Notes: generated by a model from the letters alone, not told the origin. A stretch of DNA of 55,874 nucleotides from an uncultured Christensenella sp. (GCA_964368435.1 CAYJBS010000003.1:1-55874); one strand, 5' to 3'; positions 8,907 to 34,000 are shown, counted from the first letter of the stretch. Numbers and translations are program-made.

Positions 8907-8935
8907 GATATGAAACAGCTACTGGAGGCTATACA

Positions 8936-9007
8936 GTGAAGAGAACAACAAAAACCATAGTTTTGATTGTGCTGACGGTGATTCTGGCACTGACCTTGTT
9001 GGCGTGT
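8936..9007 (+). other. Lipoprotein signal peptide with lipobox L-L-A-C (Cys codon 9005-9007)
   Basis: It has a basic n-region (KR..K), a 17-residue hydrophobic core, and then LLA|C, which fits the [LIVMF..]-[LIVM..]-[AGS]-C lipobox rule. Confidence 0.7.
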
Positions 9008-12000
9008 GCGCCAAAAACAGGGTTGCCGACGCCGCTACCCGATGAAGTGGGTCCGACGACTCCTATTTTTAACATAAACAAGAACCAGCTTATGCGGAAA
9101 ATAAGCGACGGAATGCTTGTTGGCGCCGAAAGAATAGAGGATAGCCAGGAAACATATGTCAGCTCTGTTTATACCATACATACGGGATACATAAACTACA
9201 CAATCGACTATAAGGCGAACTATGCCTCCAGACGCCAAAACAGTCAGATTTATGTTAAGGTATTCGACAACAACTATCACATGAACCGTATATTTATCTA
9301 TTACAACAAAGGAGATTTATTCTTACAGTCCCAAGGCGAAAAACACAGTATACCCGACTTTGGCTCGACAAATATGTTCGATCTGTTCTTTGAGCTTGTC
9401 ACGATATTCGATATGTCCGGCACCTTTATCGGACAGACCATGTCCGACCTCTTCAACCCCGACAATATCGGCGCCAACTTGAGCCCGCTTGTCGACCAGA
9501 GCCGTATGAAATACATAAAGGTCACCGACACCGCCGAGTCTATAGAAATAAGAGATGTCAACCTGAATTACGGACAAATCAAGATTCAGGTTAATGACAT
9601 GATAAAAAATACTTTCGAGAAGTTTGAGCGCAAGTTTGACTTGCTGAGCTTAAAATATTTGGGACTGCGCATCAGCGATCTTGCCATTCTTGAGATTGCC
9701 ACAATGACGGGTGACTTCATAAATGTCCGACTGGACAAGCAAGGCGTCGAAACGGTGATATTCGAAGCCAGCGGTGACATGGCGGACGGCATAAACACCT
9801 TTGACATCGATATGACAGTAGTCGCCAGGGAAGGCAAGGGCGAAATAAAGATTGACCCTACCGAAAACCCCTACACGAACACATATCCCGAGATGCTTAT
9901 GGGACGCTACAACTACGGCGGCACGCTGTTTGTACCCTTCTTTGATATGACCTACGACGCAACGCTGCGTACCATACTTTCATCGACCGACAACACCGTC
10001 AACCAAGTACTTTTCACTATTGACAGCGTCAATGAAGAGATGGGCGGTCTTTTTTATAAGGACCAAATGCTTTATGTCGATATATCGGGAATGAGTCGAC
10101 AGCTGAACGGAGCTATCGAACTCGATAAGCTCAATCTGCCCAAAGTAAAGTTTGAGGGCATAAACCTAGCGCAGGAAATTACACTGCTCATAAACGATGT
10201 ACTAAAAATTGTGCAGTCTTTCCGTCAAGATGACGACTACGGCGAGAACGAAGAGCTTATGCAGCTGGTTCTCGACAACATTTATTCCGACGAAAAGACC
10301 AACACCATATCCATAAACATAACAAAAGAACTCATACAGCAACTCTATGGAGAGGATATCGACCTAGTAGATTTGCTGGCGCAAAAACTAAAAGTAGACC
10401 GTGCGCTGATTGCGCAGATACTCGGCGACAACGCATTGGAGAACGCCGTACTGGTGCTTTCTTATAATGTAGAAAACGGAGATATCGGTGTCGACCTCTA
10501 TGACGGCGACTTCCTTGTCTTCCAATTGAGACTGTCTGTCATTGACCCTCTTCCCGGCGACAACTTGGTTTATCCCGAATCTTTCAACCCCGATTATTTC
10601 TATTGGTTGGAAATTCCCGACAACACCATACTTTCTATCGACGGTTCGCTGTCCATGCAACAGGTTTCGAAAGTACAATTTGATCAGCTTTTCGGCGCGC
10701 TGTTCGGAGACATAACAGGACTCAACACCCCATATACGTTGTACAGCAATGAGGTACTCAACTTCTCGTTGGACGTCATGCAGGTGTATAGCTATGCCGA
10801 AAATGCCTCCGGAGACAACGAACGAACCATCGAACAGGTCATGAAGTTCGAGATTTTCAAAAAAGAAGTGTTGCAACTGGGTGTGTATTCTTCTTCGGAC
10901 CCCAATTATTTGCTAGTGAATTTCAACGTGCCGATAGGTCCGTCGGGTAGCGATAAAGACGGCATTCCCTACAAACAAAGCGCGCTGAAATATCGAATAG
11001 AACGTCAGAAAGTCAAGGACGCTTTCAATGAGTTGCTCGGAGAGGACAACATTTTTGTAATGGAAAACATTATGGATGTCCTCAGCAAGCTGCTGAGTTC
11101 TGTGCGCGACAGCAAGAGTATGCAGTTGCGATTCATCAACTCAAGTTTGGCGTTCAATCTGATTTCGGACACCGTGAAAGAGATTATTGGCATCGACAAC
11201 CTGAACGCCTTGCTTCAAGCGCGCGTAAGATTTGCGGTGACGGCGGAAGAGTATCTCGACATAAAGAATATAGAAAGTCAATTTTCGACACCCAATGTTC
11301 GCCCATTGGAGAACCATACCTTTGAAAGTATATACAAGACACAATGGCACGAATTTGTTTATTCGTACTTCGGCGATAATCTTATGCGCCTAAAACTGAC
11401 TTTCCTTCCCGGTTCGGTTAAGATAGTTTCGGGCAAATATTTTTATCAGCCCAGAGCAAAAATACTTGATGTAATATCGACTTATTATGTAACAATTCTT
11501 GACGGAGACAATGGCATAAAGATTGTCGAAGCCGTTCTCGATCCCGATACCCCGAGGAACAAGGACGCTGCGCTCAGCGCCACGCATCCGATGAGTATCG
11601 ACCCGTCCACAACATCCACCCTGCCCGGACGCATTTCTGTGTTGTACGATGACGGCACTTTCGGAGATGTGGAATATATTATTGAGGGCTTTGACATCAG
11701 CAATATCACCATATCGGGCATGCCTCGCGCGGAATATTGGCTGATTATCGGCAAAGAAAGTGTGGCAGAAAAGAGCTTTTATATTGCGGTGCAGGTACTC
11801 GGAAGAGTAATAGTGCCCTTGAGTGAAGTCATAAAAGGCGAAGTTGTATACATGAAGAGCGACGAGGGCGTACCCGTAGTCGCAGAGGTTACGGTTGACC
11901 CTTATTCATATGCCATACGAAAGGCAGAGAATCCGTTATGGTCGCCGCTGCCCTCGAGTTTGATATTGAGTTTTGAGTCGCCCGACGGAATAGAAGACGG

Positions 12001-15000
12001 CGACATAATCCCCATAACGAATATTGACTGGGATTTCGATTTCTTCAATATACAATACAACGGCGGTGTATTTTATTCACACACAATGTTCAACAACCTG
12101 CCAATAGCGCTGAAGCTCAACGTAAAATCAAAAATAGTATCTTATTTGCGGTTTGTCGACTCGGTGAACCTCAATCTTCCGATTGACGAAAGACCTTATA
12201 GCGAAGCCATAGGGCAATATACCGTTGATGTGTTGCAGACGGAAACGTATACTTTCCCCACGAGCTCCACGGGGACGCAAGAGCTTAGATTGTATTATGA
12301 AGATGGCACATACAGAATAATAGGCAATCGCGACCATACTTTGGACGATTTGAATTATTATAAGAATTATTTGCCGCTGATACTTCAATGGAAGCATAAA
12401 GAAGTCAACGAAAACTCGGTACGACTTGTCGGAACAAAGGCTCCGCTGGGTATCGAAGACAAAAACATAAACACAACGACGATAGGCAACGAGGGCTTTA
12501 CGATAGGTACGCAATCCATAAGCTTGAATGTGCTTATGCCGACAAGAGCCGAAGCCAGCATAGGCAATGCAGGAAGTATTTTTGCCATAACAGCTTATGG
12601 CAGATTGGGTGACGGCAGTTACAACTTTGAAGCGCCTGTCAAAGAAATGACATCGTATTCAAATTCTGCGTTTAGTTCCAATCAAGCTTTGGGACAGTTT
12701 TTCGATTTCAACCCCTACAACCAAAAACCTTTGCCGAACAAGGTGTATCTTGATGTCATCCAAGGTGGAGAAACAAGGGTACAACGCAAGGCTTACGACA
12801 TCAAATGGGAAGAATCGGATGTATTGATGGCAAGACACACCTACAACGGTGTGGGACAAATAATCTATACGGATTATATACTCAGAAACGTCTCTACAGA
12901 CGAAGAGCATTTGCTTGTGACGGGTACTCTTGGCGACGGCAAGCATACGATATCAGTGCGGATGATTGTTCGCAATCTTGACGCGCTCTATCAAGATATT
13001 ACTTTCGAGGGCATGGAAACCAACGAAACAAGAAAGACCGTAGACCCTTACCTTGCCTACAACTTCCCGTCATACTATACTTTGATGCTCAAGAACGGCA
13101 CCGAAATAAAAGTCGAAGATGTCAAATGGTTCATTGTGTTACAACCGGGACAGAATTGGATGCTCCAATTGTACGGCAGGAGCTATCATTGGATATACGA
13201 TTATTTGCAGTATCTTGAGGATTTGTCGCAAGGCAACCCCGTCGGTTCACTCGATGACATCATTCCCGACGGTTTCAGCGTACCGACAGCCGAGGAACTG
13301 GATTATTTCCGACTGCTTCTTGAAAAAGGCGAAATTCCCATAGACAACAAATATGTCTTCTCCTATCTGGGAGGCAACTATAACATAAAGAGTTATGTCG
13401 AGGCTACGGACACTGTCATTGCGCAAGAGGTTTCTCTGTCTTTGACTGTCATATCCCGCAATGTTCTGCTGGTTGACACCGACAACGGTTATACTCGGCT
13501 GGACATCTATAATACCGACGATTCGCAACCGGCGGAGTTGTATTCGCTGGATACCTATCTGGCAGAAAGCACAACGATGCTGTCCCGTCTTGAATATCTG
13601 CGCAGATACAATGACGAATACGACCGCACCATTCGCCGCATAAACAATCTATTGACCGACCGCAGAAGAGAAAATCCCGAGCTGTCAAACGTAGTTTTGA
13701 ATGCAAATGTATATGATGAATATAAATACATATCTTCTGTAACCGAACAAGCGTTGCTGGTTTCGCACTACAACAACGTCTATGGGCAATATCCCAATTC
13801 ACCCGAGGAAGAACTCAAGTTCTTTGCTCTTCAGAGTTATATGTCCGAAAAGACCGTCACCATCAACAAGGCGAGAACCGGCATATATTTCGGAGACAAC
13901 CCCGAAACCTCGATGAATAAATATCTGCTGAACGTGAGATGGACGAACCTTGACGAAATCATCACAACGCTACAAAACAGCTCCGGCGCCGCTTTGGGTA
14001 TCAAACTTGAAGGATATCTCGGTTATGGACAAATAAACCAACAGTTGGTGAGAATTCCGTTCAAGATTACACGCAGAGAAGTGACGACTTTCAGTTTCAA
14101 CAGACTAAATACCGGAGACAGCGAGCTGTTGACGGTAGACTATAGATATGTATATATATCGGATGAAGCAGAAGCTGTCTCGATGATAAACACCATAAGC
14201 GACAACGTGTTGTTCGACAACGATATTCCGCAGCATCAGAAATCAAAAACGATTTTTGACAGACTTTATGGCATTTCTTTGGATATCGACAGACTGATAA
14301 TGGAAGAAGTCGAACAAATCATCTACAACGCCGACGAAGAGACGCGGTATGCGCTTATACTGGAAGAAATCATTCGACTGCGCACCGAAAATATCCGCAA
14401 GGTTTTCATAAACCTCAAAAAACCCATGGGCTTGACGCAGGATGACGGCGACGGCAACATGGTATTTTTGGCGCCCGGCGAATATTTCTATGAGGTATTG
14501 TCCCAAGTAAGTTTGGAATTCAATGCCGATCGCAGCACGGCAGGATATTTCGCGCCGAGATTTATCCTCGGAAACGGAGATACTCTGACGCTGCAAAAGA
14601 AAGATTTTGACGAGAAGTTGTTGCTCCCCGTCATAAAAGAAACAGATCCCATGACAGGTCTTGAGTATGCGGTTATCGACATATTGTTGACACACCTTTC
14701 TGCCGGCAGCTGTGAATATCCTGTCACGGTACGGTTCAGAGCCATTGTCGACTCGAAGGATGTCGAGGACGGTCGTCCGACGGAAAGCGAAATCGATCCT
14801 TTCGACGAAAACGGAAATATAAGATTTACGCAAGGCTACAAGCTTCCCGAAAGAATCACCATAAACTATAGATATTCACAAGCCGTCACCTTCAAAATAC
14901 CCGTAGGCGATCAAACGGGCTCCTGGAGAATAAACGGAGAAGTCCTCGAAAACGGCACTATTCCCAAGGAACAAATAAATGTACTCAACCCCTCGATTCT

Positions 15001-18000
15001 CGACTATACAACGATATTGCCGTGCAGTCAGGGAGAGTTCACCTATCACATAAGTTTCCCGCAAAAATATATCGGAAAAACGAGATATAACGCGCAAGCC
15101 GAAGACCGCGCCTTCCAAGCGCTGGACATTCAGAGCGGTATTATCGAGATCGACAATATTTATGAAATCTACGATCCGAGCAAACCAAACGGATTCGATA
15201 TAACAAAACTGCCCCATATCATAAACCCGTACACATACGAGTCGGGCGAAGTCACCTTCGACACAGGGGATGATGTTATCGAAACTTTCTTCAGCATAAC
15301 CAGCAACAATGCGTATTCTGTTGAATGGACATTAGCGAACGAATGGATAAACCGAAAAATAGACCACAACGGAACGACCGTCATAATAGACGGCGAATTG
15401 TCGGTGGAGCCTGTGTTGTTTGCGACGGCGAAGTTGGATTCATATTTTTATCTCTCAAGCAATGTCACAAGACAACTCAATCAAGAAATCGAACTTTACA
15501 TAAAAGTAAAGCCCCTTGCCAATCCGATAATCGAGTTTGAAGGACTGATAGACTACAGCGACAACAATTATATCAGTTTCGACCCGTACGACGACCCCAA
15601 CAATTATGGCGGCAATCTGGTGTTGCCCAAAAACGGCTTGACGGTTTATTTCAATAACAACCTGAACGATTCGCACACTTTTGACGCCAGAGCAATACTG
15701 TCGTACGAGATGCTTATGGCGGATTCGACCAATATTGTCCGCGCTCACCTTTATGATGCTCTTATGAAAAGAAGCAACACTTCGGATGTCGAGAAGAGAG
15801 CTTATCTCAAGACACAGCTGAGCAGCATAATATCGGCTTATGCGGCAGGAATGAATATCAGCATAGCGCAAGCCACCGAGAATATTTATTCTGCGGCTTT
15901 TGATGCAGTGCTTGAAAGCGGTTCGATGCTGCAAGCAGAAAGACAAGAACAAAGAACCTTCCTTATAGATTTCGCCTCAAGTCTTTTGTCGACTCATTAC
16001 GGTTTTTCGGATTCCGCCGCATGGCTCAAGTTGATGCAGATAAATGGTTCCGAAAGCGCAAAATCGGCTATCATAATGGATTATATTCGTACACTGTCGG
16101 GCTTCAACGAAGTCGGCATCATCAGAGATTTGTCGGCGCTTTATGCCGCCTATAATTTCTTCCTTTCGGGTGCATCCCAAGCAGAGAAGCAAGGCATAGT
16201 ATCGATGTACCTAGCAGCATTCAGCGCAACCCAAAAGGCGTCCATAACGGCTCTTCTTGAGACGCGGGACTTGTATAGCGGCGAAAGAATGCTGGCTCTC
16301 GAAACAATAAATCAGCAGGGCGGCATCCCCGACCAAATGCAACGTTATGCCCAAATATTCGATTTGGTAATGGAAATGGTCAGCGTAAACAGCCGACTGG
16401 ACATATTGCGTCTTGCTCTTGCAGAGAGCAGTTTTTGCCAACTTATCGCATCTTCGACGACGGAAACCAAAGAGAATGTGTCGAAGGCATTGTTGTTCAT
16501 CGAGCTTGCGGCAGTGGTACAAAGCAGAACCGACTATCTCGGCGCTATGAGTATGAGTATGGCAAGAGCAATGAACGGCTGGATAAGCAGTGAAGACACT
16601 TTCGCGTATATGTGGCAAAGACATATTGCCGCGACGATAGAAAGGGCAGACTATTTGAGCCTTAAGACGCTTGTTGAGACCTATATGTCGGTGGCGTCGG
16701 CAATGAGCATAAACAGGACAAAAGAAATTGTCTTCAGCAGGCTCATAAATGTCTATGATTATAATGAGACTGATATGCAGAACTACTTTGGCTCATCGGG
16801 TGATGAGATTGCGGCAAGAATGTTGCAGATGGCTGTCAGCAACGCGCAAACGCAGCTTCAAGATTGGCAAATACAAAGAGCCAAATCGGCAGTTTGGCAA
16901 TCCATAACCGCCGCTTTCACCGATGACGGAATATTGGCAAGAGTACTCAATGGGGAGAACGACACCGAGAACACCGGAAGAATCGACACCGTTGCCGTCA
17001 ACGCCTTGGCATATGAGAGGTTGAGACTTTCGCAATACCTTCCTATATTTGAGGCTAGGTTGAATGCTTTGGAAGATCAAATAGTCGATCCCAATCAAGA
17101 ACAAAGAAGAGCAGCCATTTATCGGGCATTATATGATGAAAGCTCCCTCGACGAAAAAGTTATACTTGCAGAGCTTATGGCGGCTTCTTATTATTCCGTA
17201 TCCGACACACAGAGTTTGGTCGGAGCCGTTCCCTATACTCAGGCAGGGCACAGCGTAGTTGAAATTGACAGCAACATTTTATATCTGATTCTATATTTAC
17301 CCGACGGTCAAACCATCAATGTTACGCTGAACATTTTTAGCAGAGAAATAAAAGAAGTGATGGTCCCCAACACAATCACCAACGAAACAGGAGGCGAGGT
17401 CAAAACGGCGCAAATCAATATACCCAATATCTATTATATTGATCCATACAACTCCGAGACCTTCAGACTGCCTTCGAAGGCTGAATTTGTCTTCGAAACA
17501 GGCTATAATCTTGTGCTTGACATAAACGAGTGGCTGGATTATGACAACAATGTCTTCTATACCAGAGGTCAAAGCTTCGATGAAAACGCGATTTATTATT
17601 ACAATCTTACCGAAAACAGCTATCGCGGCGGACATTATACGCTTAAGTCATATCTTACTTATGGCATCGGCGTCAATGCGGAAAGACAGCTTTTCGAAAT
17701 ACAAATAATTGTGCTTAACCGCACACTGAAACAGCAGTATACCGAAAGTTTTGATTTTGAGAATCCTATTGCAGGCAGACGTCAAGACATTCCCTCGAAA
17801 CTGACAAATGATATGTTTGTCGGAATTGATGTCTATTATAAGAATTTCATTGCCCCCGAGTATTATTACTCCAATTTCGGCACGCCTGTTGTGCCGCAAA
17901 TCGACTGGTCAAAAACCTCATACAATGAGTCGGGACTCAACGATTCGGATATCCTTGTTTCGGGAGGCTTTGATATCAATGTTTTGGGGTATCTCTATTA

Positions 18001-21000
18001 TGACAACAACTTGCTGATAAAGACATATCAACAAATATGGCAAGCGCTCTACAATCAATTTGCCGCCACCACAAAACCATTGGCATGGGAGAAGTTCTTT
18101 GAAATCATGGTCAGCGGAGAAAGAGTCGTAAAGACGATTTTTGCAGGAGAGGCCGCCGTCCAAATAAAGGCGCTCGACGACCTAATTTATGATGAACTAT
18201 ATATTCAGGCATACAAAAATACCGTAAAAAATGCCAATGTAGACTTATTGGGCAAGATACAGAACTTGATGGAAACGCTACGCAACAACAACATCGGACT
18301 TATCGCAGACGAGAGTTCGGAATTGTGGTACATAGTATACTATCAAGATCTCGAAGCAAAAGCCAAGAATTCCACCTTGTCAGAAATGGAAGCCGAGGTT
18401 TGGAGCGCGCTCTATTCCACATATGTTTCCGAAGAGATAACCACCATAAGCCTGCTCCGCGCCCAAAAGTGGGATGAGCTTTTTGCCATGGCAGGCATTT
18501 GGCAGGCTCAGCAGAAACAAACGGCTTTGAGCTATCTCGACCAGGCATACAATGTGTATAGAGATTTTATGCTGGTATCGACATGGGAAACTCTCGAGTC
18601 GGTAGCCACCTTCAAAGAAGCTGTGGTTATGTCGGAGATTGTCGAAAGGTTGCGTCAGCTTTATGGCTCTATCGAACAGGCAAAAATAAGAGGTTGGGAC
18701 TTCCTTCGCAACGATGACCGCACAAAAGGCATAATCGGCGAAACGGCGCAAGTCAACATCACGGCAAAGAGCTGGGATTTCAACGAGATACGCAATATGA
18801 TTGACGAAATAATCTCTGAAATTACCTTCAACGCCTTCACAAAGACCAGCAACGACAACACCTTCAAAGTTACATTTGAGGTGCTCAACACCCTGCTTAT
18901 CGAAAGACTCAACGAGGCTTTGAACGATACAATACTTGCATACTATGACGATTATCGCGATGACGCACTGGACCTTTTCAAGCAGATGCTGATGGATATT
19001 GCGCTCGAAGAAGTCAACGCAGTCGATCAAGCCAACGACGGTTTGAACGGAAATGCCCGCAAAGAGCAAAATTGGGACGATTTATTTGACATAAGAACAT
19101 ACGAAGCGACAAGCCCGATAGATGACACCAGAGCCGACGTCGAAGCGTCGGGCACAACCGAACAATATGCAAGAGACATGATAGTTTGGCAGCGGTTGCT
19201 TGAAGGCGCCGGAGAATGGCTCGACGAAATGACCCAAATTTATATAGATACAGGACTATTGGGCGTACCCGATTACCAAAGATATTATTATGCCGTAGAT
19301 ACATACAGAGCTTTGAGAGTCAGTGTCTTCACCGAAGAAATGAACCAACTATTATCAAAAGCTTATTTCAATGAGAGCCATAATGCCTGGAATACAGTAT
19401 CAATGAATCCACAAGGTTATGGGGAGACTGCCGCAAGCATAGAATACATTCTTCTCAAGGACGTTTTGAGAGAAGCTTGGATGGCGCTTGAGGGATATTC
19501 GACTGCGCAGCAGGTTTCCGCAATGAGGAGTCACTTGAATTCGTCGGCTTATGGCGTGTTGCAATACTCCAGAGGCTGGATAAGCTATTATAACTCCTTG
19601 TCGATACCTGATGCCGCCCGTAAGAGCCTTATGGATGACCTACGGTTGTATTATTATGGATTTGACACAACCACGGGACAATATGCAGGATATGGCGCAA
19701 TCTACGACTATATTTCACTGCATCCCGAAAGCATCGGAGAAACCCTTGAAGAATTGAACAGTTTGAAGGCGGTTATAGCAGCCGAGATGGCGGGCGAAAA
19801 GATGCAAAGCATCGTTGTGGAGACCATAAGAAGGTTCTTCAATTATAGCGCTGCCATGACGGACATTTATCAAATATACCTGGACGATTTGAAGAGAGAT
19901 GCATGGGCATATCTCATCGAGCGGAAACTTTATCCCGCCGAAATGGTTGCGTTGCTTCCCGACAGCGTGCTGAAACCAGTAGCGTGGAACTTGCTTTATG
20001 CGATGAGAGAGCAGACTGCCACGGACGAGCACGCTCTGATTGACGGATACTTCAACAGCATAGCCGCCGATCTGATAGATCAACAGGCAAAAGACGCATA
20101 CGATTATCTTTTGGCGCTCAATGCCGGAACTGTCGACGAGGATCGCCAAAACGACATATTGAACGGGCTTGACAGCGATGCAATCAAAACAGTATTATGG
20201 CAGGAGTTGTTCGCCGTTTCCGAAGGTAGCGACAAACTGTCAATGGAAAGCACACTCAATCAAGTTATTCGTGAGGGCAAAGTATCGGGCATTGATGCAG
20301 AATCCATCAGCTGGAACAGACTGCTTGACAAGAACGAAACCTCTCCCGCCAGAAAAGCCCTCATGTCTGAGATGTACGAAACATACACGAAGGCAAGAGC
20401 CTTTGAGCTTTACGTAATTGAGAAACATGAAGAAAGCTCGCAAACAGAGGACGATTTGTTGGATTATTATATCCAAAGCTACAAAAAGAGCAAGGTTTGG
20501 GAGGAGCTTAACAACGAAGCAAACTTAGAGAGACAGCTTCTCATGGATGATATCATTATGGCAATCGAGCATGCCGACGAAAATATCCGCCGCGCTATGT
20601 CGCTTGACGTACTTGTTGGACTTGTACCCGAGGAAGCCGACATAATCTACTTGCGTGTTCAGACAACGCAGCTTGAATACGGCAACAATGAAATTAAACA
20701 ACAAATCAAGTCAATAGAGTGGGATACATATTATTCTGCCGCAAGTACGCAAAGACGGCAGGCAATGGATGTCATTCTGAACAATTATTCAAATATCCTC
20801 AAAATTATTGACCGCAAGGCAGCTGCTTTAGATGACAGTTCTTTCCATAATTTGATAGGCGCTACGGAGAGCCAAGCCTTAGAAGACAGACTCCGGACGC
20901 AATTCGACGCGTTGCTTGAAACCTTCTTCTATGTGAAGACCTATGACGACCTTTACACATCGACTTTCACCGCGGAGCTTGACGATTGCTACGACTATGT

Positions 21001-24000
21001 ATACCAAAGATTTTTGGTTATGCACTATGACGGAGACGTCGAAAAGATTGATGTCGACACCATAAAGAAGCATGCGCTGTTGCGTTTAAGGGAACTTCAT
21101 CGCAAAGAAAGTATGGATTATTATAATGGTATTTTGCAATCCGGACTTGCGGCTTATGTCGTAAGCTACAAGGCTTTGGCTTGGCAAAGATATTATGATT
21201 ATAACCTGGAGAATAATGAAGAAAGGGCTGAGGCTATGGACAGCATTCTTCATGGCGCCGTGACAAGCATTATGGATACTCTGCAGGCAGAAGCGCTGGA
21301 TAGGCTCTATCAAGCGCTTGCCGAAGACGCTACTTCGAGAATAACAGCTACGGAAGAAAATCTCATCAGCACCATAAAGCAAAATGAATTGTGGATATCG
21401 CTGTTCGGCGAAGACCTCGACGCGCTTAAAGATATGCTCGGGGACATTTTGCCCATTGACGACAACAATCTTACTTTGAAAGATGAGGCGTGGCAGACAC
21501 TTATGTCACTGCTTAATCAAAGATCGACATATTTCACGTTGCTACTTGTTCAGAAAACGCAAACTCTTGAACAGTATCCGCAGCAAACTCAAGACTACAG
21601 AGATACAAGCAGCTGGGATGCGTTGTATCAGCTGGGAGTGCCGGGACTTGCACAGCTTATGGATGAAGTACTTGCGACATATGGTCTTTTCGGCGACAGC
21701 AACAAACATCTGGCGTTCAGAGATCTTGAAATCATGCTGACTACCGACCATACACATCTCGACCGCATGGAAATGATGCGCGCACTTGTTTTTGGCGAGA
21801 ATACGCAACTGTCGGAGAAAGAAATAAACGCCCAAGCGTTCGATCGAACATGTGCAAATTATGTTGCAATCGCAAGCCGTCTTGAAGAAGCGGTGTTGGA
21901 CATAAAGCATAATGCATGGCAGGTCTTTGTTGCCGAAAATTCCGGCAATGTTTTGCTAATCTCTCTTTTTGAAGAGATGTACGTTCTCGAGCTTTTGTAT
22001 CAAAACAATGACGAAAAGCGCGCGGCAACGGTATGCTGGGACAGATTTGTTAATATGACCGTAAATATCGAAGAAACGCTGGCATCTGCCGATCAGAGGT
22101 ATTCCGAAGACGAGTTGAGAGCCTTCTCTATCGGCTGTATCCTTGATTTGTTGGGCGGCGACGAAAGAGCGGTATTGCAAAATGCGCTTGACGAAATAGT
22201 CATAAATTATACCGCCGATCAACTTTGCGCAATGGTTTATGACATAGTGTACAGCGCAAGCATACCTGTCGAAAAAGCCGCAATGAAACAATTGTATGAT
22301 ATTCAAGCATCGGGAGGCGGTACCGTAGAAGCTATCAAGATGCGTACGCTGAACGCATACAAAGCACAAAAAAGTCAAAACGCCACAAGTGTTATTGATG
22401 ATGCTTATGAGACATTGAGCGACAGCGAAAAAACAGCGCTTTTTGCAGCATTCCACACTCCGACAATCAGTGACCCAATTGAGGTATATACACTTGATCT
22501 TGCCGAGCAATATTGGAATGGAGGCAAGATCGATACTGCATATGGCAGAATCAATATTTTCTGGGATCTTGAGGTGTTGGAAGACGGCGGCGACATAGCC
22601 AAGATCTTTATCGGCAACGCCTACAAAGCCATAGACAATGTCGACAATGAGTTTAATTATCAAACAAATGTTTTTGAAGTAAATAACTTCATATATAAGA
22701 ACAGACAGATTATCATCGAAAAACTCGATTTCTATGGGGAACTGAACATATATTCGGGAGAGGAAGTCATCGATGTAGCAAACTACTACAATCAACTTGT
22801 CATAGACCCCCTCAGCCCATATATCCCGCAAAAGGTAGCGGCATACGGCAGTATCACAGGAGTGACACCCAATGTCGAAATAGACGGCGAGTTATACAGC
22901 TATATCGGCGAAGTCGATGTCAGTTTTGAGAGCAGAATAAACGAGTTCTTGTATGACGACGAGGGCGTTGCCGGAGAAAGCATGACGGCAACGGTTTCCC
23001 CGGGACTTGGCGAGGGATCGCAGAATATTACCATAACGGTGTATTATCTGAACCGTCAACCGATTACGTACTACGTCAACAATCAAGATTATACCGTAGA
23101 AATGCTTGATGAGGATCTCAACCTTTATCCCTTGAGCATGAATATCGGTGACAATAAGGTGTTGACGGTTGATCCGCTAAACGACAATATTTATAATACC
23201 AACACAAACAAATATATTCTGCCGAACTCTTTGGTGGTTATGTTTACCGACGCTTATGCCGACGGTGTCATCTCGACGCTGTTTATGAACGGTGTCTTCA
23301 ACAACAGACTGGACATAAGCGGCATAAACTGGAACCTTATGGGCAAAAGCATTACGCTAGCGGGGATTGCGCCGTCGAATATCAGCATTGACGGTTATAC
23401 CGTAGACAACCAAAATATCGTCTCGACAGCTCAAATGAACAGCGATTTCTGGAAAATACAGCTTGACGTTCTTGAGAAAGAAGTAGACAGAACTTTGGAA
23501 GTCAATCAGCAGGGGCAAGGCGGCATAATTCTGGCGTCACAAAGCGGCGGTCTGTTGACTGCCACCAAAAAGATAGACCCCTACAATGTCATGGTATCTT
23601 TCCCCGACCATGTGAGAGTAGAATTTACCGACGGTTCGGAATCAAAACTTTTGACCAACATCTCATGGCAGTTTGCAGAGGGACGCGGACTTGAATATCT
23701 GCAACTTCCCGAAGTAATTACCGGCGCCATCGGAGAAAGCGCAATGTTCATAACTGCCGGTTTCAAGTGCGTCAGTGAGACTATCTGGATAAACTTCCCC
23801 ATCCAGAAACGTCATATCGACATAAGCGTCGAGGGCTCCGAAGAAATAAGATATCTTGAAGGCGGTACGATTTATTTAATTAAGGGTGTAGACTTGATGA
23901 CTCAGCTGAACAAGTACAGCAGTTTATACTACAACTTTGCCGATTACGGGCAGCCTGAGGACTGGTCGGAAGTGCCGTTAGAATTCTTGCCCAATGATGT

Positions 24001-27000
24001 CAGCCAAATAAGCACTGCCGAAGTAGGGACATACACCATTCGCGGCAGGTTGGGACAAATAAACGATCCCAACATAGTTTTTGAGATTGTTGTGATAGAT
24101 CCCAAGCTATACGCCATAGATATCAACGGACAACTCAACCCGAAAGTCTATTATGACAGCTTGACTGCCGGCGTAAACACCTTCGGCGTTCGTCAAGTAG
24201 GCAAGGAGAATGAGGAGAACTTCCTCCCAAGCAACCTGGTACAACTCAGCGTCACCGATAATGGCGGCAATGTTGTTATAGGATACAATGAGTTCGAAAT
24301 AACAGAAAGCTATTGGGACATTGCAAACAAAAAAGTTATATTCACCTGCGTATATACTTTCCTTGACGAGAGTGACGATGTCGAAAGGCTCGCCGGAGGA
24401 TTGGGCGGTAGTCAGCAACTTTACTTTACAGTTTCGCTGCCGCTGAAGACTTATTTGTATTCGGCAATAGACGACACCATGGTACTGCGAGCCGGCAGCA
24501 ATGACGGCACCAATATCCTGAAGTTGACTCTTGGCGAACCACTAAAAATGTCGGATCTCCCCAACGCAATTATGAACTACGGCAGAGAGAACGCTTTCGA
24601 AGTACCTCTGCTTTGGGATTTGCGCACCATAAATGTCAACAAAGCAGGCACCTACAACCTTTTCGGATATTACAGAGATTATACCTCGTCATATCCCAAG
24701 AGCAAGAACCTTGAGGTAGTCATCGACAAGGTTGACATAAGCAGTGCGGTTTCCACGCTGTATTCCTTGACTCAGACGTATACAGGATTGTATATCGAAG
24801 TGGTGCCGGTACTGCCGGATGTGCTGCGAGAGCAAGGCAATTATGCGCAATTACGGCTGGGCAGAGACATAATAGTCGAATATCTGACCGAAGAAAAATA
24901 CATTCTTGAAGCTTTTGAGGAATTCAGCACGACACCGTACAAAGACGCAGGCGCGTATTTTGTCAGAATAACAGTTGAAGATTACAACACCTTCGGACAA
25001 AAAGTCTTCCGTATGCTCATAAATCCTATTGAGATAGACCCGAAAGACATCATATTTGAATACGGCGAAGGCGCACAAGATTGGGCGGTCGAGATTCCCG
25101 AATGGCCCGAAACAGAAGAAGCAAAGAACAGGCTGTTCTTCAATCAGTTCCGCGCCTACGCCAACCAAAATCTCGGCTCTAATGTTTCCGCAAGAGTGCG
25201 CGCGGCGGCTTTTGAGACCTTGAAGGAGAGTGTCGGTTTGACTGCGCAAAAGCTATTGACCGATCGTTATAACACCATATTAGCAAACAACTTCCCGCAA
25301 TACGACACTTCCGATGTCGCCGAAAAAACCACTATTGAGCTTTTAACGAAAGCTATGGTTTGGGAAGAGATCGCTCCATACGGAGTCAGTGGCGAGCTGC
25401 TAGTGCCCGGTTGGCCGAAGAATTCCGACGAAAAACAAGGGCTTTTTGAAGAGGCGAAACAACAGCTGGAAGAAAACAGCGGCGACAAAGAAGCCATGGC
25501 TCAGGCGTATGACAATCTGTTTGCCCTTGTCATAGCTCTGGCACAGGTGCTCTTACAAAACAGATTCGACGAAATACTTCAAACCCGTTTCCCGAACTAT
25601 CACGAGGCAACGGAATCTATGAAGACATTTATGATGATAGAAGCCAAGTCTATCGTGTGGTCCGAAATCACCCCCACCGGTCTAATTGGACAGCCATTAA
25701 TAGCCAACTGGCCGAGAACTATGAATGAAAAAGAACTGATGCTTGATGATGAGTATGAATACCTGCTTAACCTCTCGCTGGCAGGCAGCGAAAGAGAGCT
25801 GTTCATAAAGCAGGTCAAGGCATTGGCATACAACGAGTTGCTTGCCACGGTATACGCCACGGCGCAAACAAAATTGCAAACAAGCCTTGATACGATTCTG
25901 CAGATTTATTATCCGTTATATAACACATACGGCGACGAACAGAAAGCTCTGATTCTTACCGAGGCAAAAAGCCTTGTTTGGGACCAGGTTGTGCCGGGTG
26001 ACACCGTCACAGAAAAGAGCTATGTATATGACGGACAGGACCACATGCCCGTAGTTACGGGTATGCCGCAAGCAAAAATTATCGGTTGGCCACAAACTCC
26101 CGACGAAAAGGCAGCGCTGCTGGACTTTGCGCGTACCGAAAACTCCAACTTCACAGAAATCGAGGTACGGGCAAGGGCATTTGACAACCTTATGCAGCGG
26201 ATATATTCCAACGTTTTTGCCTTGCAGAAAATAACTGATATCTTGAATTTGGTTATTGAGGAATTCTATCCCGCTTACAATTTGCCTTCGACGCCCTATG
26301 AAGAAAGACAGCAGCTGCTCCTTGAAGCAAAAGCAAAGGCGTGGGACTCCAGAATAATTTATGCCGATACGGTGGAGGAGATTTATTATTCCTTCACATA
26401 CTGGTATGCCGACATGAGCAACAACGGCATGATTACCAACACAAGACCGCGTTCGGCAGGCACATATGAAATTACACTTTTGATAGATCCGCTGCTGAAC
26501 CGCAACTACCGTCTAAAAGCCGATGCTGCCATTATGACGACAATCAGCATAAGAATAGCAAATATAGACAAAAACTTCCTGAATGAGATGGTTTATAGCG
26601 GAACGGCTATTATGCCCGAATGCCCGGGAATGCACGACGAAAACGGCGATCTGCCCGAAGGCGTCAGCATAGAATATACGTATATAAAAGACGGCAGAGC
26701 AGTAGAGTACATAAGAGATGTCGGTCAATATTTCTTCACCGCTGTCGTAAACGGCGGCAACAACTATCCTTCGTGGCAAAGCGAATCACTACTCATAAAC
26801 ATATTGAAGAAGGACTTGATTATTGATGTCGGTTTGGTCGAAAGCGGCTATCTTGAAAAGACGAAAGCCTTCAACAGCAGCGTAACTTTTGACGGTGTAG
26901 TAGGCAATGATTTGCCCTCGATGTTCGGTTATTTGGTTTGCAACAGCCCTGTCACCGACAAACATATGGTAGGTGATTATGATATCACTTTCCAAGGCTT

Positions 27001-28072: not shown

Positions 28073-31000
28073 ATGAAAAAAGCATATAAGATATCTTTAA
28101 TAACTGCATTTGCGGTATTGTTACTTTTGCTTGTATTTTTGTCTTGCCAAGGCTACAACTATCCTCAAACACCGTCCGAAATAGTCGGAAAGAACACTTT
28201 CACACAAACTATGGTGGAGGCAGACGGCAATGAAGCAAATTTCTTTGCCAGCGGCGACGAGAAATTCAACTATCTTCATGACAAAGATGGTTACATTTTG
28301 TTGCGTGACAACGGCTATTTGGTCTATGCCCGAAACGACGAAGGCAGACCGCAACCGACAAAAGTCCGTTATGCCGCAGGCGCCGAAAGAATCAACTCTT
28401 TGCAAAAAATGGTGTACTCCGACATAAACTTCTCTGCCAATCCCGACTTGATTGCCCAGTATCCGCAGAGCGCTTCGGCGCCTTTGCTGTCACAAAGCAG
28501 TCCTTTCGAAGTGCGCCCGATAGTCAATATAGTCATTTATGTATGCTTTGCCGGAGAAAACGTCAGTTTGGACCGTCAGCAAATAGACAGCTTTTTGAGC
28601 GGACCGACAAATTCGCTTACTGATTATTATCAGCGCCTGTCGAACGGCAAAATAATGGTACATAACATAAACCCGTTGAACGGTGAGCAGATATACATCT
28701 ACAAAGATTCACAACCGCGCAGCTATTATCAGCTCAAGAGAGGTTCTGCCAGCAGAGCGGCAAGAGAGAGAACACTTCTCAACAATGCCGTCACAGCCAG
28801 CAGACAGTATTTTCAACTTCAAGGACTTGACATAGATTCCGACGATGACGGCTTCGTAGACGCCGTAAATTTCTTGATTGCAGGATCGCCATACAGTGAG
28901 TGGGGCGGCATGCTTTGGCCCCATTCGTGGGATCTCGACGACATCTCAAGCGGCAATTCAGCGACAATTTCGGGCTTGAAAGTCAAGAAATACTCTTTCA
29001 ATTTCCTCGGACAGCTTACCGTAGGGCTACTGGCTCACGAATTTGCGCATGTGCTGGGCGTACCCGACTTGTATCACTATGACGACGCCCATGTTGCCGT
29101 AGGCAACTGGGATCTTATGCACTTTGAGGCGGATAATCCACAATATATGACAACGCATTTGCGTTATAAATATTTGAAAGCAGTCGAAGAGGAACAGATA
29201 GGGATTATTGATTATAATGGCATCTATTCGCTAAAACCGACAACGCTTACTTCTCGCGGAGAGCTTGCGGCATACCGCATAAATTCCTCAAGACCAAACG
29301 AGTATTTTATGGTAGAATACCGCAACAACAATGTTACGGGTTATGACTCTTCTCTGCCTGGCTCGGGGCTCATCGTATACAGAATAAAACAAAATGTCAC
29401 AGGAAACTCACTTGCCAAAAAGAATGACAAGAACAATCCTGACGAATTATACATATTCCGTCCGAGAGTAGTCACCACGGGTACCGAGGCGAACAATTCT
29501 TTGGCAAACCTCAACAAAGCCTTTTTGTCGCCCAGCAACGCTGTTTTTTCTTCGCTTGGTGCCAGCCTTCAACAAAAACCTGCCTCAAGCTATGACCCCA
29601 CGACGATATACTTTACCGACGGCTTGAACAGCGGCATTGTCATCAATTCGCTTTCCATAAATGACGGCGAAATAGTTTTTGAGGTTCGACTGTCCGGAGG
29701 CAACAGCGTTGACGACGATTATTTTGTCAACAAGATTTCTCTGAAGAACGCAGGTCTGATCAACAACAGCCAATTCAGCGGCGTGTATGCCGATATGACG
29801 GTGGCGGACGGCATGGCTTTGAGCAACATGAACAGCATTGTTGCAGTCCTGAAGACCTCCGACAACAGAAAGACCGCCGAAATAAGGCTTGACAGAGCCA
29901 AGTTCATACTATCCTACGACCAAGAGCTTCGCAATTTTGCGGTGCGATTCATCATAAACGACAAGGGCAACCACAATCTTTCCACGGTATTTTATGACAA
30001 TGACTGGAAGAACTATGACGAACCGTCAAATATCGAACTTTATGTCGTAGACAGCGACAACGATATGATCAAGCTTGCATCATATTCAATAAGTCAACAA
30101 AACGCATCATGGCAATCCATACAGATGACCAATACCGTATTCAAACCATCGGTATCGGCATCTTTAAGAATGACTATAGGTATCCGAAATGACGGAAAAG
30201 CTTTTGCTTCATCAATTGATGACCTTCCGGAAGAAATAGATGATGTCATTGCTGCATCTGCCGGAGCGTATCATATGCTTATTCTCAAGAGCGATTTGAA
30301 GGTTACGCATTTTGGCAGTCTGAATCAGAACGAAAACAATGTAGGTTCCTGGGCAAACATCATAAAAGTAGCGGCAGGAGAGTATACCTCGTACGGACTT
30401 GATTTGATGGGCAGAGTATTTTATGCCGGCTCAGGAGCTGCCGCAGGAGTGGCGGCTTGGACGGACATAATTGATATATCAGCCGGAAACAGACATGTTG
30501 CCGGCGTCAAATCAAACGGCAGAGTAGAGGCTTTGGGAACAGGCACCGATGCGCTTGCCGTGGGAACTTGGGAAAACATAACAGCAGTGGCTTGCGGCAA
30601 CGATTTTACTGTCGGCTTGACAAAGAGCGGCACAGTTATTGTCACCGGCAATTTGGCAAACAAGACGCAAGCGACAAATTTACGCAACATAACAAAGATT
30701 GCCGCCGGCGATCAGCACATGCTGGCACTGGACCAAAAAGGCAGAGTCTTCGCCATTGGACAGGACTTGGAAGGCAACTGTGACGTGTCGGGATACTATG
30801 ACATTATCGATATCGCCGCAGGCAACTACCAATCGGTAATGCTGCGAGAGGACGGCAAGATTTTTTATGCCGGCGTCAACACCAATAGCACCAATGACAT
30901 TTCGCAAAATTTGATATATTTCAACAATGATTACGTAGACGTAACTTCATTGCTCTCACCTTTTGAAGGAAAAATAATGAAGACAGGTGAAAGCTATTTT

Positions 31001-34000
31001 CTCAATGTTGCAGCATTGCCGCAGAATGCCACCTACAAAAAAATAACCTACAAATCCAGCGATACTGCTGTAGCGGAGGTTACAGAGGATGGCGTTGTTA
31101 CGGCAAAGGGTGAGGGAGTCACCGTTATTGACGCTACACACAGAGGCTCTTCTCTGAACGAAAAAATCACCATAACAGTTGTGGCGCCTTATCAATCGGA
31201 ATCTATGATAGCCGCAGGCGACAGCCATAGCGTCATTCTTGGCAACAACGGCACTGTGACGGCGGCGGGCGCCAACAGCAAGGGACAGTTGAATGTCAAT
31301 ATGTGGGGCAACATAAAATTCGTTGCAGCCGGAGGAGACACTACCGTAGGAATTACTCCCGACGGCGGCATTCGGGTAGCAGGAGAATTGCAGGGAATAG
31401 GCGCCGAGGACTGGACGAGTATCAAGTATGTTTCCGTCAGCAAGCGCACCATTGTGGGCATAAACTCAGACGGTGTAGTATTCGCCGTGGGAGACGACAA
31501 TTATCATCAAGTTTCATCGGTTGAAGGCATATCCGGAGCAAAAAAGGTTACCGCAAGCCCGACGCATACCGTAATAACGTATGAATCGAACGTATTTGAG
31601 GCATACGGCAACAACAACAAAGGACAACTGGGCGTAAAGTATTGGAGAAATATTCTTCAAGTAGTGGCGTGTGAAGGCTTTACTCTCGGTCTTTCAGAAG
31701 AGGGCTATTTGCTTTATGCAGGGTACTCTCCGTATATAGAAAATATGTCCGTTGTTTCGCAATGGTATGACATAGTAGCCATTGACGCAAGCGCCGACCA
31801 TATCGTGGCTGTTGACAACAACGGCAAGGTATATGCGGCAGGCAACAATTCTTACGCGCAATCAACGGTAGGCAGTATGACGCAGGTCGGCAGAATTGCC
31901 GCAGGCGGCGAACATACCGTTGGCATAAATTTTGACGGCACTATCTCCGCCGCAGGACGCAACAATGACAGCAGGCTGGTACTGCCGGCGGTCAACGAAC
32001 TGCCGAGAGTAAATCTGGAGTCGGTCAACTTCAGTGACATAACTTTCGGAGTCAGGGTAGGACAAACAAAGAGAAGCAACCTTGTCTTCCGTCCATACAA
32101 CGCAACCGACAGAAAATCCGAGAATATTTCATATTCTTCCAATTTAAGCAACATTGCCACAGTCGACAGTCAGGGCAACGTAACGGGTATTGCCGTGGGC
32201 GAAGCCACCATCACCGCCAGAATCACGAAGAACGGCGGAGGACAAAATACGGTCAGCATGACGGTATATGTTTATGATACCGTGCAATCCATAAATTTTC
32301 TTTCTCCTCCGACAAAAAACATTTACGGCTACAAAGACAAGCTGGATTTGCTTGGAGGCAAAATAAACATTGATCTCGGCGGCAACAAGAGCTTTATCAC
32401 GACATTGACTCCCGAAATGGTAGTAGGTTTTGATACTGCCACTTCCACACTGGGCGACAGAGTAATAACCGTGCGCGAATATAACGCATCAACAACATTC
32501 CCAATAAAAGTCGTCGACACCGTAAAGAATATCAACATAAGCAATATGGCGAACATGAAGACGGTATACGACTATGGCGATGCCATAGACCTTTCCGGCG
32601 GTTGGATCGGCATAACGAGAGGTTACGGAAACGTTCAGATCGAGGAGAGGATGGATAACCTTCTTCTTAACGGCTCACTGGAAGTTTTTGCCGACACAAA
32701 CATTCTTGCGACGACGACGGTGACCTTGAAATATACCGACAAAATAGCCGCAGAATCGGGCATCTCGAATATTTTCTATTTGTCCTATCAGATTACTGTA
32801 TTTGACAAGGTCATAGGATTGACAGCAGAACTTGACAAAACAATCTTCAAATACGGCGAAGAGATTTTTGGCAACGGCAGACTTATTGTCAATATGAAGT
32901 CGGGCATAGATATTTATGAGGACATACAGAGCAAAGAAGAAATTGAGGAAGGTGTCGATTCTGTCATAACTATCGGCAACTACGACAAAAATATGCTTGG
33001 AGCGCAAATAATAAAAATAAATTATTTCAATCCTGATTTTGACATTCCTTTTGCTTATTTCCCGACACTCAATATCGAGGTGCAGGACTCCATTTCCGAA
33101 GTTGAGATCACCTCAATGATGCTTGACGATGCGGCGGTGTATGATAGGACGAAATCTATCGACAGCTCGATTACCGTACGTGTCAGCTTTTCGGGCGGCG
33201 CCATAATCGATGTCGGCTATGACGGCGCGCAGCAAATGTTTGCCAACATCATTCTTGCATTTGGAGAAGTCAGTGTCGGCGATCAGGAAGGTTTCGCAAA
33301 AGTAAGCATGGAAATCAAGGTACTGGAGCGGCTGAACAACAACATACAACACAACCGCAAGTATTATGACAATGATTTGAAAGTGCTTGGGCTGGGCAGC
33401 ATTTCTTCGCTAAAATTTGTTGGCGGCTCCCAATTTGATTATGGACAAAGCACAGACCTTATGTTGGAAATAACCACCGACAACGCGGCATTGTATCGAA
33501 TAAAAATTGATGATGCCAGATTGGGACTGGACAACAAATTGTTGACTCCGCAGACTGTCAGTTTCACATTGTTGGGAGAGACTGCCACAACAACCGTTAC
33601 TTTCAAGGATTATGTGACGGGCATATATACGCAATACTTGAATATAAGCGCCATTTACGGTCAAGCGTTGCAGCTTACCGTCTATAAAACCATGGCAAGC
33701 GGCGCAGAACTGGAGATTACAGACGGTTGGGACTCCAACTATATTGCGACGAAAGAGGGTATGCAGCAGGTCACCATAACTTATTTGAACAGTTATACTT
33801 ATACCATAAATGTTACGGTGTTGAACGCTATTGCTTCCGTCAGCGTAATCAGCTCGCCGCGTACCACTTACCAAATACACGAAGACTTGGATTTGTCCGA
33901 TTTCAGCATTCGTTTGACCTTTCAAAAAGGCGACAACGAAACGGTACCCTATGCTCTCGACAAATTCTCGGTGACTGGTTTTGACAAAAACCTTATCGGC

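Follow-up and report, generated by a model that had tools for sequence, protein, structure and literature searches.

Giant open reading frames and the helical tract

We analysed a stretch of 55,874 nucleotides (nt) from an uncultured Christensenella sp. (GCA_964368435.1, CAYJBS010000003.1:1-55874), hereafter the window; all nucleotide positions are those of the whole window. Based on the list of its open reading frames (ORFs), three giant ORFs are present, all on the plus strand. ORF1 (3-8906; 2,967 amino acids, aa) is cut at its left end by the window edge. ORF2, a giant lipoprotein, spans 8798-27934 as a mechanical ORF of 6,378 aa, to which all ORF2 residue numbers refer, and ORF3 (28073-34996) is M6 peptidase-like and contains RCC1, Big_2 and Big_3 domains. 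The main subject of this analysis is a helical tract of ORF2 (17966-22507, plus strand, aa ~3057-4570), which is a true, very diverged repeat, a compositional artefact being excluded. It contains ~27 units anchored on tryptophan (Trp) and ~12 units anchored on Phe, Tyr or Leu, and it is defined by motif enrichment, by profile self-comparison with hhalign and by the Trp residues of the orthologs.

The mechanical start of ORF2, TTG 8798, results in a 109-nt overlap with ORF1. The real start is probably GTG 8936 (~6,332 aa), which is preceded by GGAGG and lies 30 nt past the ORF1 stop. The N-terminus contains a signal peptide and the lipobox LLAC (nt 8996-9007: VKRTTKTIVLIVLTVILALTLLAC), both read from the sequence without a dedicated predictor such as SignalP or LipoP. 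The lipobox Cys is invariant in four full-length ORF2 orthologs, so that the combination which characterises bacterial lipoproteins, a signal peptide and a lipobox with an invariant Cys, is present. Neither ORF1 nor ORF2 has any above-threshold match in Pfam or NCBIfam.

Enrichment of the tryptophan motif

The initial annotation had described a short aromatic-centred motif, W-[DEQN]-x-[LFIY]-[FYL], in both ORF1 and ORF2. All 24 heptapeptides listed there are found at the places given, the eight examples of a longer consensus are all present, and the W-[DEQN] sites, which had been estimated at a minimum of 30, number 54 in total, 37 of them within helical tracts. Asp, Glu, Gln or Asn is the next residue after 19 of the 45 Trp of ORF1 and after 35 of the 70 Trp of ORF2. 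The Trp codons of the main tract are located at nt 18038, 18086, 18326, 18401, 18470, 18500, 18584, 18695, 18773, 19073, 19187, 19217, 19388 and 19478 in its first part, and at nt 19577, 19904, 19985, 20198, 20312, 20498, 20720, 21182, 21392, 21491, 21614, 21917 and 22037 in its second part.

Between aa 3060 and 4440 of ORF2, D/E/Q/N follows 20 of the 27 Trp, where the background frequency is 0.27 (binomial p 4.8e-7). For the same region, the strict motif is observed 11 times (0.39 expected), the relaxed form W-[DEQN]-x-[LFIYMV] 18 times (2.5 expected), and the form which also permits F or Y at the anchor 43 times (14.3 expected); none of 2000 composition-preserving shuffles gives a count as high for any of the three. 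A weaker enrichment is seen in ORF1 aa 1950-2800 (14/24 Trp, p 4.6e-4; motif 6 vs 1.8 expected, 12/2000 shuffles). The motif is not enriched in ORF2 aa 2300-3060, which covers the part at 15.7-17.2 kb (3/7 Trp, p 0.21), and no enrichment is found in the β-rich parts of ORF1 and ORF2 or in ORF3.

The residues flanking the 27 tract Trp are also specific. Lys is found at position -4 (11/27, z 5.0), A/S/T at -3 (z 3.1), Ala at -1, D/E/Q/N at +1 (z 4.0), Leu at +3 (16/27, z 8.6) and Y/F at +4 (13/27, z 5.0). When the flanks are anchored on F, Y or L instead, no z exceeds 3.0, and the maximum for anchoring on M is 4.1.

Internal similarity of the tract

Self-blastp and windowed phmmer detect nothing within the tract; the only repeats that they find are four clean repeats located downstream in ORF2 and the RCC1 blades of ORF3. 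Profile self-comparison was carried out with hhalign, in which a 6-sequence alignment of ORF2 aa 3040-4600 served both as query and as template with the diagonal forbidden. The off-diagonal alignments extend over 320-1,190 columns, with scores of 142, 140, 138, 130, 113, 104 and 85 down to 50 (E 5e-15 to 3e-4). The reversed alignment reaches at most 29.7 (E 0.067) and four column-shuffled versions at most 24.6 (E >=0.24), so the self-similarity of the tract is significant and lies above controls which preserve composition. In the significant alignments Trp is placed on Trp in 160 of 237 cases (68%) and W, F or Y on Trp in 195 of 237 (82%), although Trp accounts for less than 2% of the tract (27 of 1,500 residues). 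Equivalent positions of the units thus hold the same conserved residues, which are retained in orthologs, and Phe and Tyr do stand in for Trp, as had been proposed.

A seed hidden Markov model (HMM) was built from ten two-helix units, all within ORF2 aa 3450-4310. Held-out peaks exceed the maxima of 100 block-shuffles in ORF2 (aa 3060-3440 and aa ~1791-1850 as well as the clean repeats) and at the C-terminal end of ORF1, and the held-out units also score above reversed controls; no peaks are seen in β-rich regions or in ORF3. Iteration in competition with decoys recruits 27-31 real windows, compared with none in five shuffled copies and 4 in one reversed copy. The iterative HMM scored per domain on full-length proteins recruits nothing beyond the seeds, and windowed scoring is needed for this reason.

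The failure of the pairwise searches inside the tract, the missing tract match of an HMM from the four clean repeats and the absence of repetition at the DNA level, on which the initial annotation and our analysis agree, could all be cited for the view that there is no true repeat, the motif being a by-product of W/D/E/L-rich amphipathic helices or of convergent helix-capping preferences. We consider this view very improbable: composition-preserving shuffles never attain the observed motif counts, reversed and column-shuffled profile controls stay at or below 30 as compared with 142 for the real alignment, off-diagonal alignments of 600-1,100 columns place Trp on Trp, and the flanking pattern is missing around other hydrophobic anchors. 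The description of the repeat as old and degenerate is borne out, its internal similarity being strong at the level of profiles. Of the two results which the initial annotation had named as fatal to its proposal, a lack of significant internal similarity and a match to an existing family, neither was obtained.

Relatives and conservation

Three word-indexed homolog searches were run, each of which yielded either nothing or only P0001, a 1,273-aa fragment from a metagenome-assembled genome of Clostridia with 62-63% identity to ORF2, in which 21 of 21 aligned Trp are conserved. Exhaustive phmmer of ORF2 aa 3190-4389 against 1.84 billion representatives returned four full-length relatives, P0002-P0005 (6,261-6,803 aa), which are 28-35% identical to the query in the tract. 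Apart from these there was no credible match; one further candidate (P0006) was rejected as a spurious match to a Listeria-Bacteroides-type repeat protein. A scan of a genome collection found the contig of P0001 alone, and a scan of metagenome contigs found no relative. Each of P0002-P0005 comes from one contig of an unannotated metagenome assembly, and all four are colinear with ORF2 over the full length.

The helical tracts (ORF2 aa 2400-2800 and 3200-4400; window ~16000-17200 and ~18400-22000) are the fastest-evolving parts, with 20-40% identity to the orthologs vs 50-60% elsewhere, in the β-rich domains. The main tract is 22-40% identical, yet 18 of its 27 Trp are invariant among the five full-length proteins and nearly all Trp are retained. 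Conserved anchors combined with fast drift elsewhere are the signature of a structural scaffold with an unconstrained surface. Either relaxed surface constraint or diversifying selection on an exposed stalk could account for the fast evolution itself.

An ORF1 ortholog (3,618-4,301 aa) is located directly upstream in all four relative loci, so that the pair is found in five loci including the window. Locus L002 is syntenic with the window, containing ORF3 (RCC1/Big_2, weak dockerin), the cohesin protein, GH20 and the P-type ATPase. At loci L004 and L005 the ORF1-ORF2 pair adjoins rpmH/rnpA/yidC/trmE, near the replication origin. The most distant orthologs, P0004 and P0005, have two Trp-helix units (…IRAWELAYERAL…RHRAWAELILK…) inserted in the β-rich N-terminal half, in P0004 at aa ~1075-1150 and in P0005 at the equivalent place; the site corresponds to ORF2 aa ~1060 (window ~11975). 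At the same two loci the C-terminal helical region of the ORF1 ortholog is doubled (637-650 aa vs 336 aa). Based on these insertions and on the doubled region, the module therefore still duplicates and moves within the family.

Repeat unit, spacing and predicted structure

The unit is a helix ending in K-[AS]-x-A-W-[DNQE]-x-L-[YF] that leads through a short turn into a second helix, in which L-M-[DE] is often found. Read from the sequence, this second helix follows the short loop as [ST]-x-x-[EQ]-[RK]-x-x-L-M-[DE]-x-hydrophobic; a strict regular expression for it shows no significant enrichment in the tract (3 vs 0.84). Across 146 ortholog sites the residues around the anchor are K (38%, -4), A (26%, -3), A (35%, -1), D/N/Q/E (66%, +1), L/I/V/Y/F (84%, +3), Y/F (49%, +4) and M (21%, +15). 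The distance from one Trp to the next varies between 10 and 154 residues, in line with the irregular spacing that had been noted earlier. Positions which receive Trp in the self-alignment are occupied by F, Y or L at 3139, 3344/3360, 3391, 3636, 3768, 3869, 3936, 4049/4065, 4094, 4307, 4348 and 4481. When these anchors are included, successive distances are mostly 23-47 residues (mean ~35), which corresponds to ~39 units with a minimal spacing of ~35 aa.

The segment 19865-20857 (plus strand, ORF2 aa 3690-4020) was modelled with AlphaFold2 from an alignment of 13 rows: the query, five relatives and seven paralogous windows which do not overlap. MAFFT brought these windows into register; one column is invariant W and another is 90% M. 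The model is all-helical, with a predicted local distance difference test (pLDDT) of 79.5 and a predicted template modelling score (pTM) of 0.61. Its helices are 12-18 residues long, apart from two which reach 53 and 58 residues (pLDDT ~77-93). According to the secondary-structure string of the model, from which helix ends were taken, five of the six modelled Trp (residues 14, 112, 150, 212 and 286 of the model) are placed 5-6 residues short of the C-terminus of their helix, and so are the Tyr and Leu equivalents (79 and 247), which gives 7/9 anchors in all. The next helix starts 8-11 residues past the anchor. In the model, the motif thus marks a helix-turn-helix corner. The aromatic anchor noted in the initial annotation is real; the unit around it, which had been taken for a single helix, extends beyond one helix into the corner.

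Concerning known families, searches of Pfam, NCBIfam, PDB sequences and PDB structures (Foldseek) give no significant match, in agreement with the earlier statement that FIVAR, GA, spectrin-like and other familiar helical repeats could not be matched. The best Foldseek match of the modelled segment has an E of 2.4 and a template modelling score (TM) of 0.21; the matches that rank highest, none of them significant, include no TPR-type solenoid and consist of the talin rod, spectrin repeats and designed helical bundles. The best PDB sequence match is the BUB1 TPR domain (E 0.14). For the spectrin repeat (PF00435) there is no Pfam match, and the structure 3kbu_A is returned with E 4.4 and TM 0.15/0.17. 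FIVAR (PF07554), GA (PF01468) and DUF1542 have no match at E <=10 on pieces of the ORF1 and ORF2 tracts. Several sub-threshold matches were rejected as chance: DUF6616 (PF20321) scores 19.9-21.6 bits vs a gathering score of 27, on ORF2 aa 3890-3984 only, and is absent in the other five relatives; HAT_PRP39_N (E 0.025, 15.1 bits vs a cut-off of 27.7) does not recur in the five relatives; Barstar and Cas6b_C do not recur in relatives either.

The helix A signature of TPR is W4-L7-G8-Y11, and HAT repeats also have a W/Y pattern. The resemblance of W-x-x-L-[YF] to both, the minimal anchor spacing of ~35 aa and the sub-threshold HAT_PRP39_N and BUB1 matches could be accommodated by a TPR/HAT-like α-solenoid, in which helix pairs of 34-38 residues would form a superhelix and serve as a scaffold binding, for example, ORF1, ORF3 or host ligands. 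We regard such a solenoid as unlikely. No profile of the TPR/HAT clan (CL0020) matches at gathering score in ORF2 or in five relatives, and no TPR-clan Pfam model appears in them even at E 0.01. Foldseek returns no TPR, HEAT or Sel1 structure, though these are plentiful in the PDB. A regular superhelix of ~34 residues is furthermore at odds with Trp distances that vary more than tenfold, with the continuous 53- and 58-residue helices of the model, and with the bulky Y/F at +4, where TPR requires Gly or Ala.

Extent of the array

The tract had originally been delimited as 15690-22520. Its part at ~17.97-22.51 kb is upheld, and the part at 15.7-17.2 kb is not. The latter region (15665-17287, plus strand, ORF2 aa 2290-2830), which contains YMWQRHI and AVWQSIT, is helical and is the fastest-evolving part of the protein (20-34% identity); with hhalign it has no internal repeat and no significant match to the tract (E 0.063), and together with the lack of motif enrichment its membership of the array is not demonstrable. 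Two isolated unit-like stretches are found further upstream on the same strand. The first, in the N-terminal half (13661-13855, aa ~1622-1686), matches tract aa 4464-4526 with an hhalign score of 42.8 (E 3.8e-4; control 15.7). The second (nt ~14168-14347, aa ~1791-1850) is given 15.1 bits by the hold-out seed HMM, the shuffled maximum being 3.8 +/- 1.8.

Downstream of the tract, the four clean repeats (25073-26407, plus strand, aa 5426-5870) are ~100-117 aa each, and each contains two helices, one with A-[FY]-[DN]-x-L and one with V-W-[DES]. Among themselves they are readily recognised (pairwise phmmer E 1e-12; hhalign self E 3e-41). Their match to the tract is marginal, with scores of 33.8, 32.2 and 31.3 (best E 0.0075) vs 19.7 for the control (E 0.36), and they are distant cousins of the tract at best. 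The four clean repeats (25091-26365) had been suggested as the seed of an HMM for the whole array; used in this way they do not retrieve the tract.

Concerning ORF1, its C-terminal helical region (7707-8309, plus strand, aa ~2569-2769) contains the same repeat. A 5-sequence profile of this region matches three parts of the ORF2 tract with scores of 65.2, 49.9 and 42.4 (best E 4.8e-7, probability 92.5%), and the reversed control reaches 17.8 (E 0.47). The region has an internal repeat of its own (E 7.8e-5); its Trp 2575, 2616, 2641 and 2687 are conserved in 5/5 ORF1 sequences, and 2728 and 2768 in 4/5, the fifth having F or Y. Within it, aa ~2650-2730 are one copy of the clean type (blastp E 5e-4; hhalign E 0.0011-0.0015). 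Based on the match to the ORF2 tract, the module is therefore common to both giant proteins. A second helical patch of ORF1 (5880-6452, plus strand, aa 1960-2150), with SAWEILY and AIWENLK, has a marginal link to the array (score 36.1, E 0.0014, probability 18%; control 16.8), and its Trp 1984, 2087 and 2109 are conserved in orthologs. The claim that the repeat occurs in both giant ORFs therefore holds for the C-terminal region of ORF1 and is marginal for this patch.

The presence of the module in both giant proteins, the retention of the gene pair in all five loci and the predicted helices of 50-60 residues would suit a role of the helical tracts as oligomerisation surfaces, through which ORF1 and ORF2, or several copies of ORF2, might bundle into a multi-chain fibre. 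We think this role improbable, since the monomer model is already self-contained (pTM 0.61), the module occupies ~200 residues in ORF1 vs 1,500 in ORF2, and heptad regularity is not seen.

Other features of the locus

The cohesin domain of the gene next after ORF3 (34993-35724) and a weak Dockerin_1 match in the ORF3 ortholog of locus L002 are suggestive of an assembly of these surface proteins through a dockerin-cohesin pair. The window is part of the chromosome of a spore-forming, Clostridia-type member of the Firmicutes. Also found 3' of the giant genes are a GH20 hexosaminidase, a P-type ATPase, a signal peptidase, SpoIIE, TilS, Hpt, a nucleotidyltransferase of the CCA/poly(A)-polymerase family, and a glycyl-radical enzyme with its activase. 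On the minus strand, a 522-aa ORF (53665-55233) contains a Lectin_like domain and a sub-threshold FIVAR match; it is a surface protein unrelated to the Trp repeat.

The N-terminal β-rich parts of the two giant proteins, ORF2 aa 724-1423 (10967-13066) and ORF1 aa 108-862 (324-2588), are paralogous, as blastp aligns them over 812 columns at 22.5% identity (E 1.5e-11), and the giant genes therefore have more in common than the helical module. The C-terminal end of ORF2 (window ~27240-27934, aa ~6150-6378) has no Pfam or NCBIfam match. It shows a periodic pattern (…NSRFNRN…IEGSRFEF…VINSSF…), which on the basis of its sequence suggests a right-handed parallel β-helix.

A proposed stalk of helix-turn-helix corners

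We favour, with a probability of roughly 0.6, the reading that the tract is a diverged array of Trp-anchored helix-turn-helix units which most likely forms a stiff stalk of a giant surface lipoprotein. The array probably arose through old serial duplications of one short helix-turn-helix ('α-hairpin corner') module, giving an all-α region of ~1,500 residues, and the C-terminal end of ORF1 contains a shorter run of the same module. In each corner the first helix would end with K-[AS]-x-A-W-[DNQE]-x-L-[YF] and the chain would turn within ~3-6 residues, the next helix often opening with an N-cap and bearing [EQ]-[RK]-x-x-L-M-[DE]. Most likely, the corner is locked by Trp, together with the Leu at +3 and the Y/F at +4, packing on the L/M face of the helix that follows. 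One to three extra helices, some of 50-60 residues, could be placed between corners, which would give the irregular spacing of 35, 65 or 100 residues. Strong constraint acts on these core anchors only, and the solvent-facing remainder drifts fast.

Consecutive helical bundles of this kind would most likely make up a stiff rod, holding the distal Ig-like and β-helix-like C-terminal domains out through the Gram-positive wall and beyond it. With three helices side by side, the stalk would be ~75 nm long (~1,500 residues x 0.15 nm rise / 3). The stalk role is considered most likely because of the lipoprotein anchor, the distal Ig-like and β-helix-like domains and the dockerin/cohesin neighbours.

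Several points weigh against this reading. A Met-containing partner pattern at +12 to +20 is found for only 8 of the 27 Trp anchors, and complete two-helix units were recovered about a dozen times in all; two helices per unit are thus the majority pattern and no rule. AlphaFold2 with two sequences gave a pLDDT of only 38, and the model with a pLDDT of 79.5 rests on 13 rows, seven of which are paralogous windows. Among solved structures Foldseek finds no rod-like relative, so that 'spectrin-like rod' is an analogy only. Finally, the analysis establishes the repeat with its unit and its conservation, the helical state and the placement of Trp close to helix ends; we infer the stalk function from architecture alone, and the burial of Trp and the geometry of bundle and rod are likewise putative.

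A bolder reading is that the Trp corner module is a new α-repeat fold family and the stalk of a surface apparatus of uncultured Clostridia not seen before, with a conserved giant pair sharing the module and, in some genomes, dockerin-cohesin partners. We regard it as possible, though rather doubtful. If true, ORF1 (~3,600-4,300 aa) and ORF2 (~6,300-6,800 aa), in some genomes coupled to an RCC1/Ig-like protein and a GH20 hexosaminidase, would form a fibre or attachment organelle without a characterised counterpart.

About a quarter of ORF2 and part of ORF1, previously unannotated, now have a defined unit, defined anchors and a testable structural role. The family could become a Pfam-type profile with which similar 'dark' helical tracts of giant proteins from metagenomes might be annotated. 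It also exemplifies an array which is invisible to pairwise and single-profile methods and is recovered by ortholog-based profile-profile comparison. The locus suggests that uncultured Clostridia possess a conserved surface system of giant proteins, and the payoff is modest, helical adhesin stalks being familiar.

Comparison with known systems

Rods of the spectrin type (PF00435), which are also found in α-actinin and dystrophin, consist of degenerate helical repeats with a conserved core Trp. The ORF2 array resembles them in its degenerate helical repeats with conserved Trp, in long predicted helices which would run from bundle to bundle and in a rod or spacer role, which for ORF2 is a presumed one; Foldseek ranks β-spectrin repeats 13-15 (3kbu) among its top matches, without significance. 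Unlike the fixed 106-aa repeat of spectrin, the unit described here is a ~35-aa corner with variable insertions, and its Trp, placed near the C-terminus of a helix, has an acidic or amide residue at the next position.

The ~35-residue helix-turn-helix unit, the aromatic-x-x-Leu in the first helix and the extreme degeneracy are shared with TPR, HAT and Sel1-like repeats (CL0020). The array differs from these in having no profile or structural match to them, in its irregular spacing, in its long through-helices and in the bulky residue at the Gly/Ala site of TPR.

Among Gram-positive bacteria, the FIVAR-GA repeats of Staphylococcus aureus Ebh and the DUF1542 repeats of SasC/FmtB form rods in giant proteins and are presumed to be stalks. 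In Apilactobacillus kunkeei, the consecutive giant genes Giant1-3 encode rods of 'parallel alpha-helical repeats' (PMC12863079). Like Ebh, SasC/FmtB and the A. kunkeei Giant1-3 proteins, ORF1 and ORF2 are giant (3,000-8,000+ aa) surface proteins of Firmicutes encoded by consecutive giant genes, with a long all-α repeat region between β-rich domains that is presumed to be a stalk. The repeats of those Gram-positive giants are regular and recognisable pairwise, some even at the DNA level, whereas the ORF2 array is detectable by profile-profile comparison only. Unlike Ebh and SasC, the array has no FIVAR, GA or DUF1542 match, and exhaustive phmmer returned none of those proteins. There is also a difference in anchoring, which is by a lipobox in ORF2 and by LPXTG in those Gram-positive giants. 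The spectrin rods, the staphylococcal rods and the A. kunkeei repeats are the nearest analogues, in function and not by homology, and the array is an undescribed repeat family of a familiar kind.

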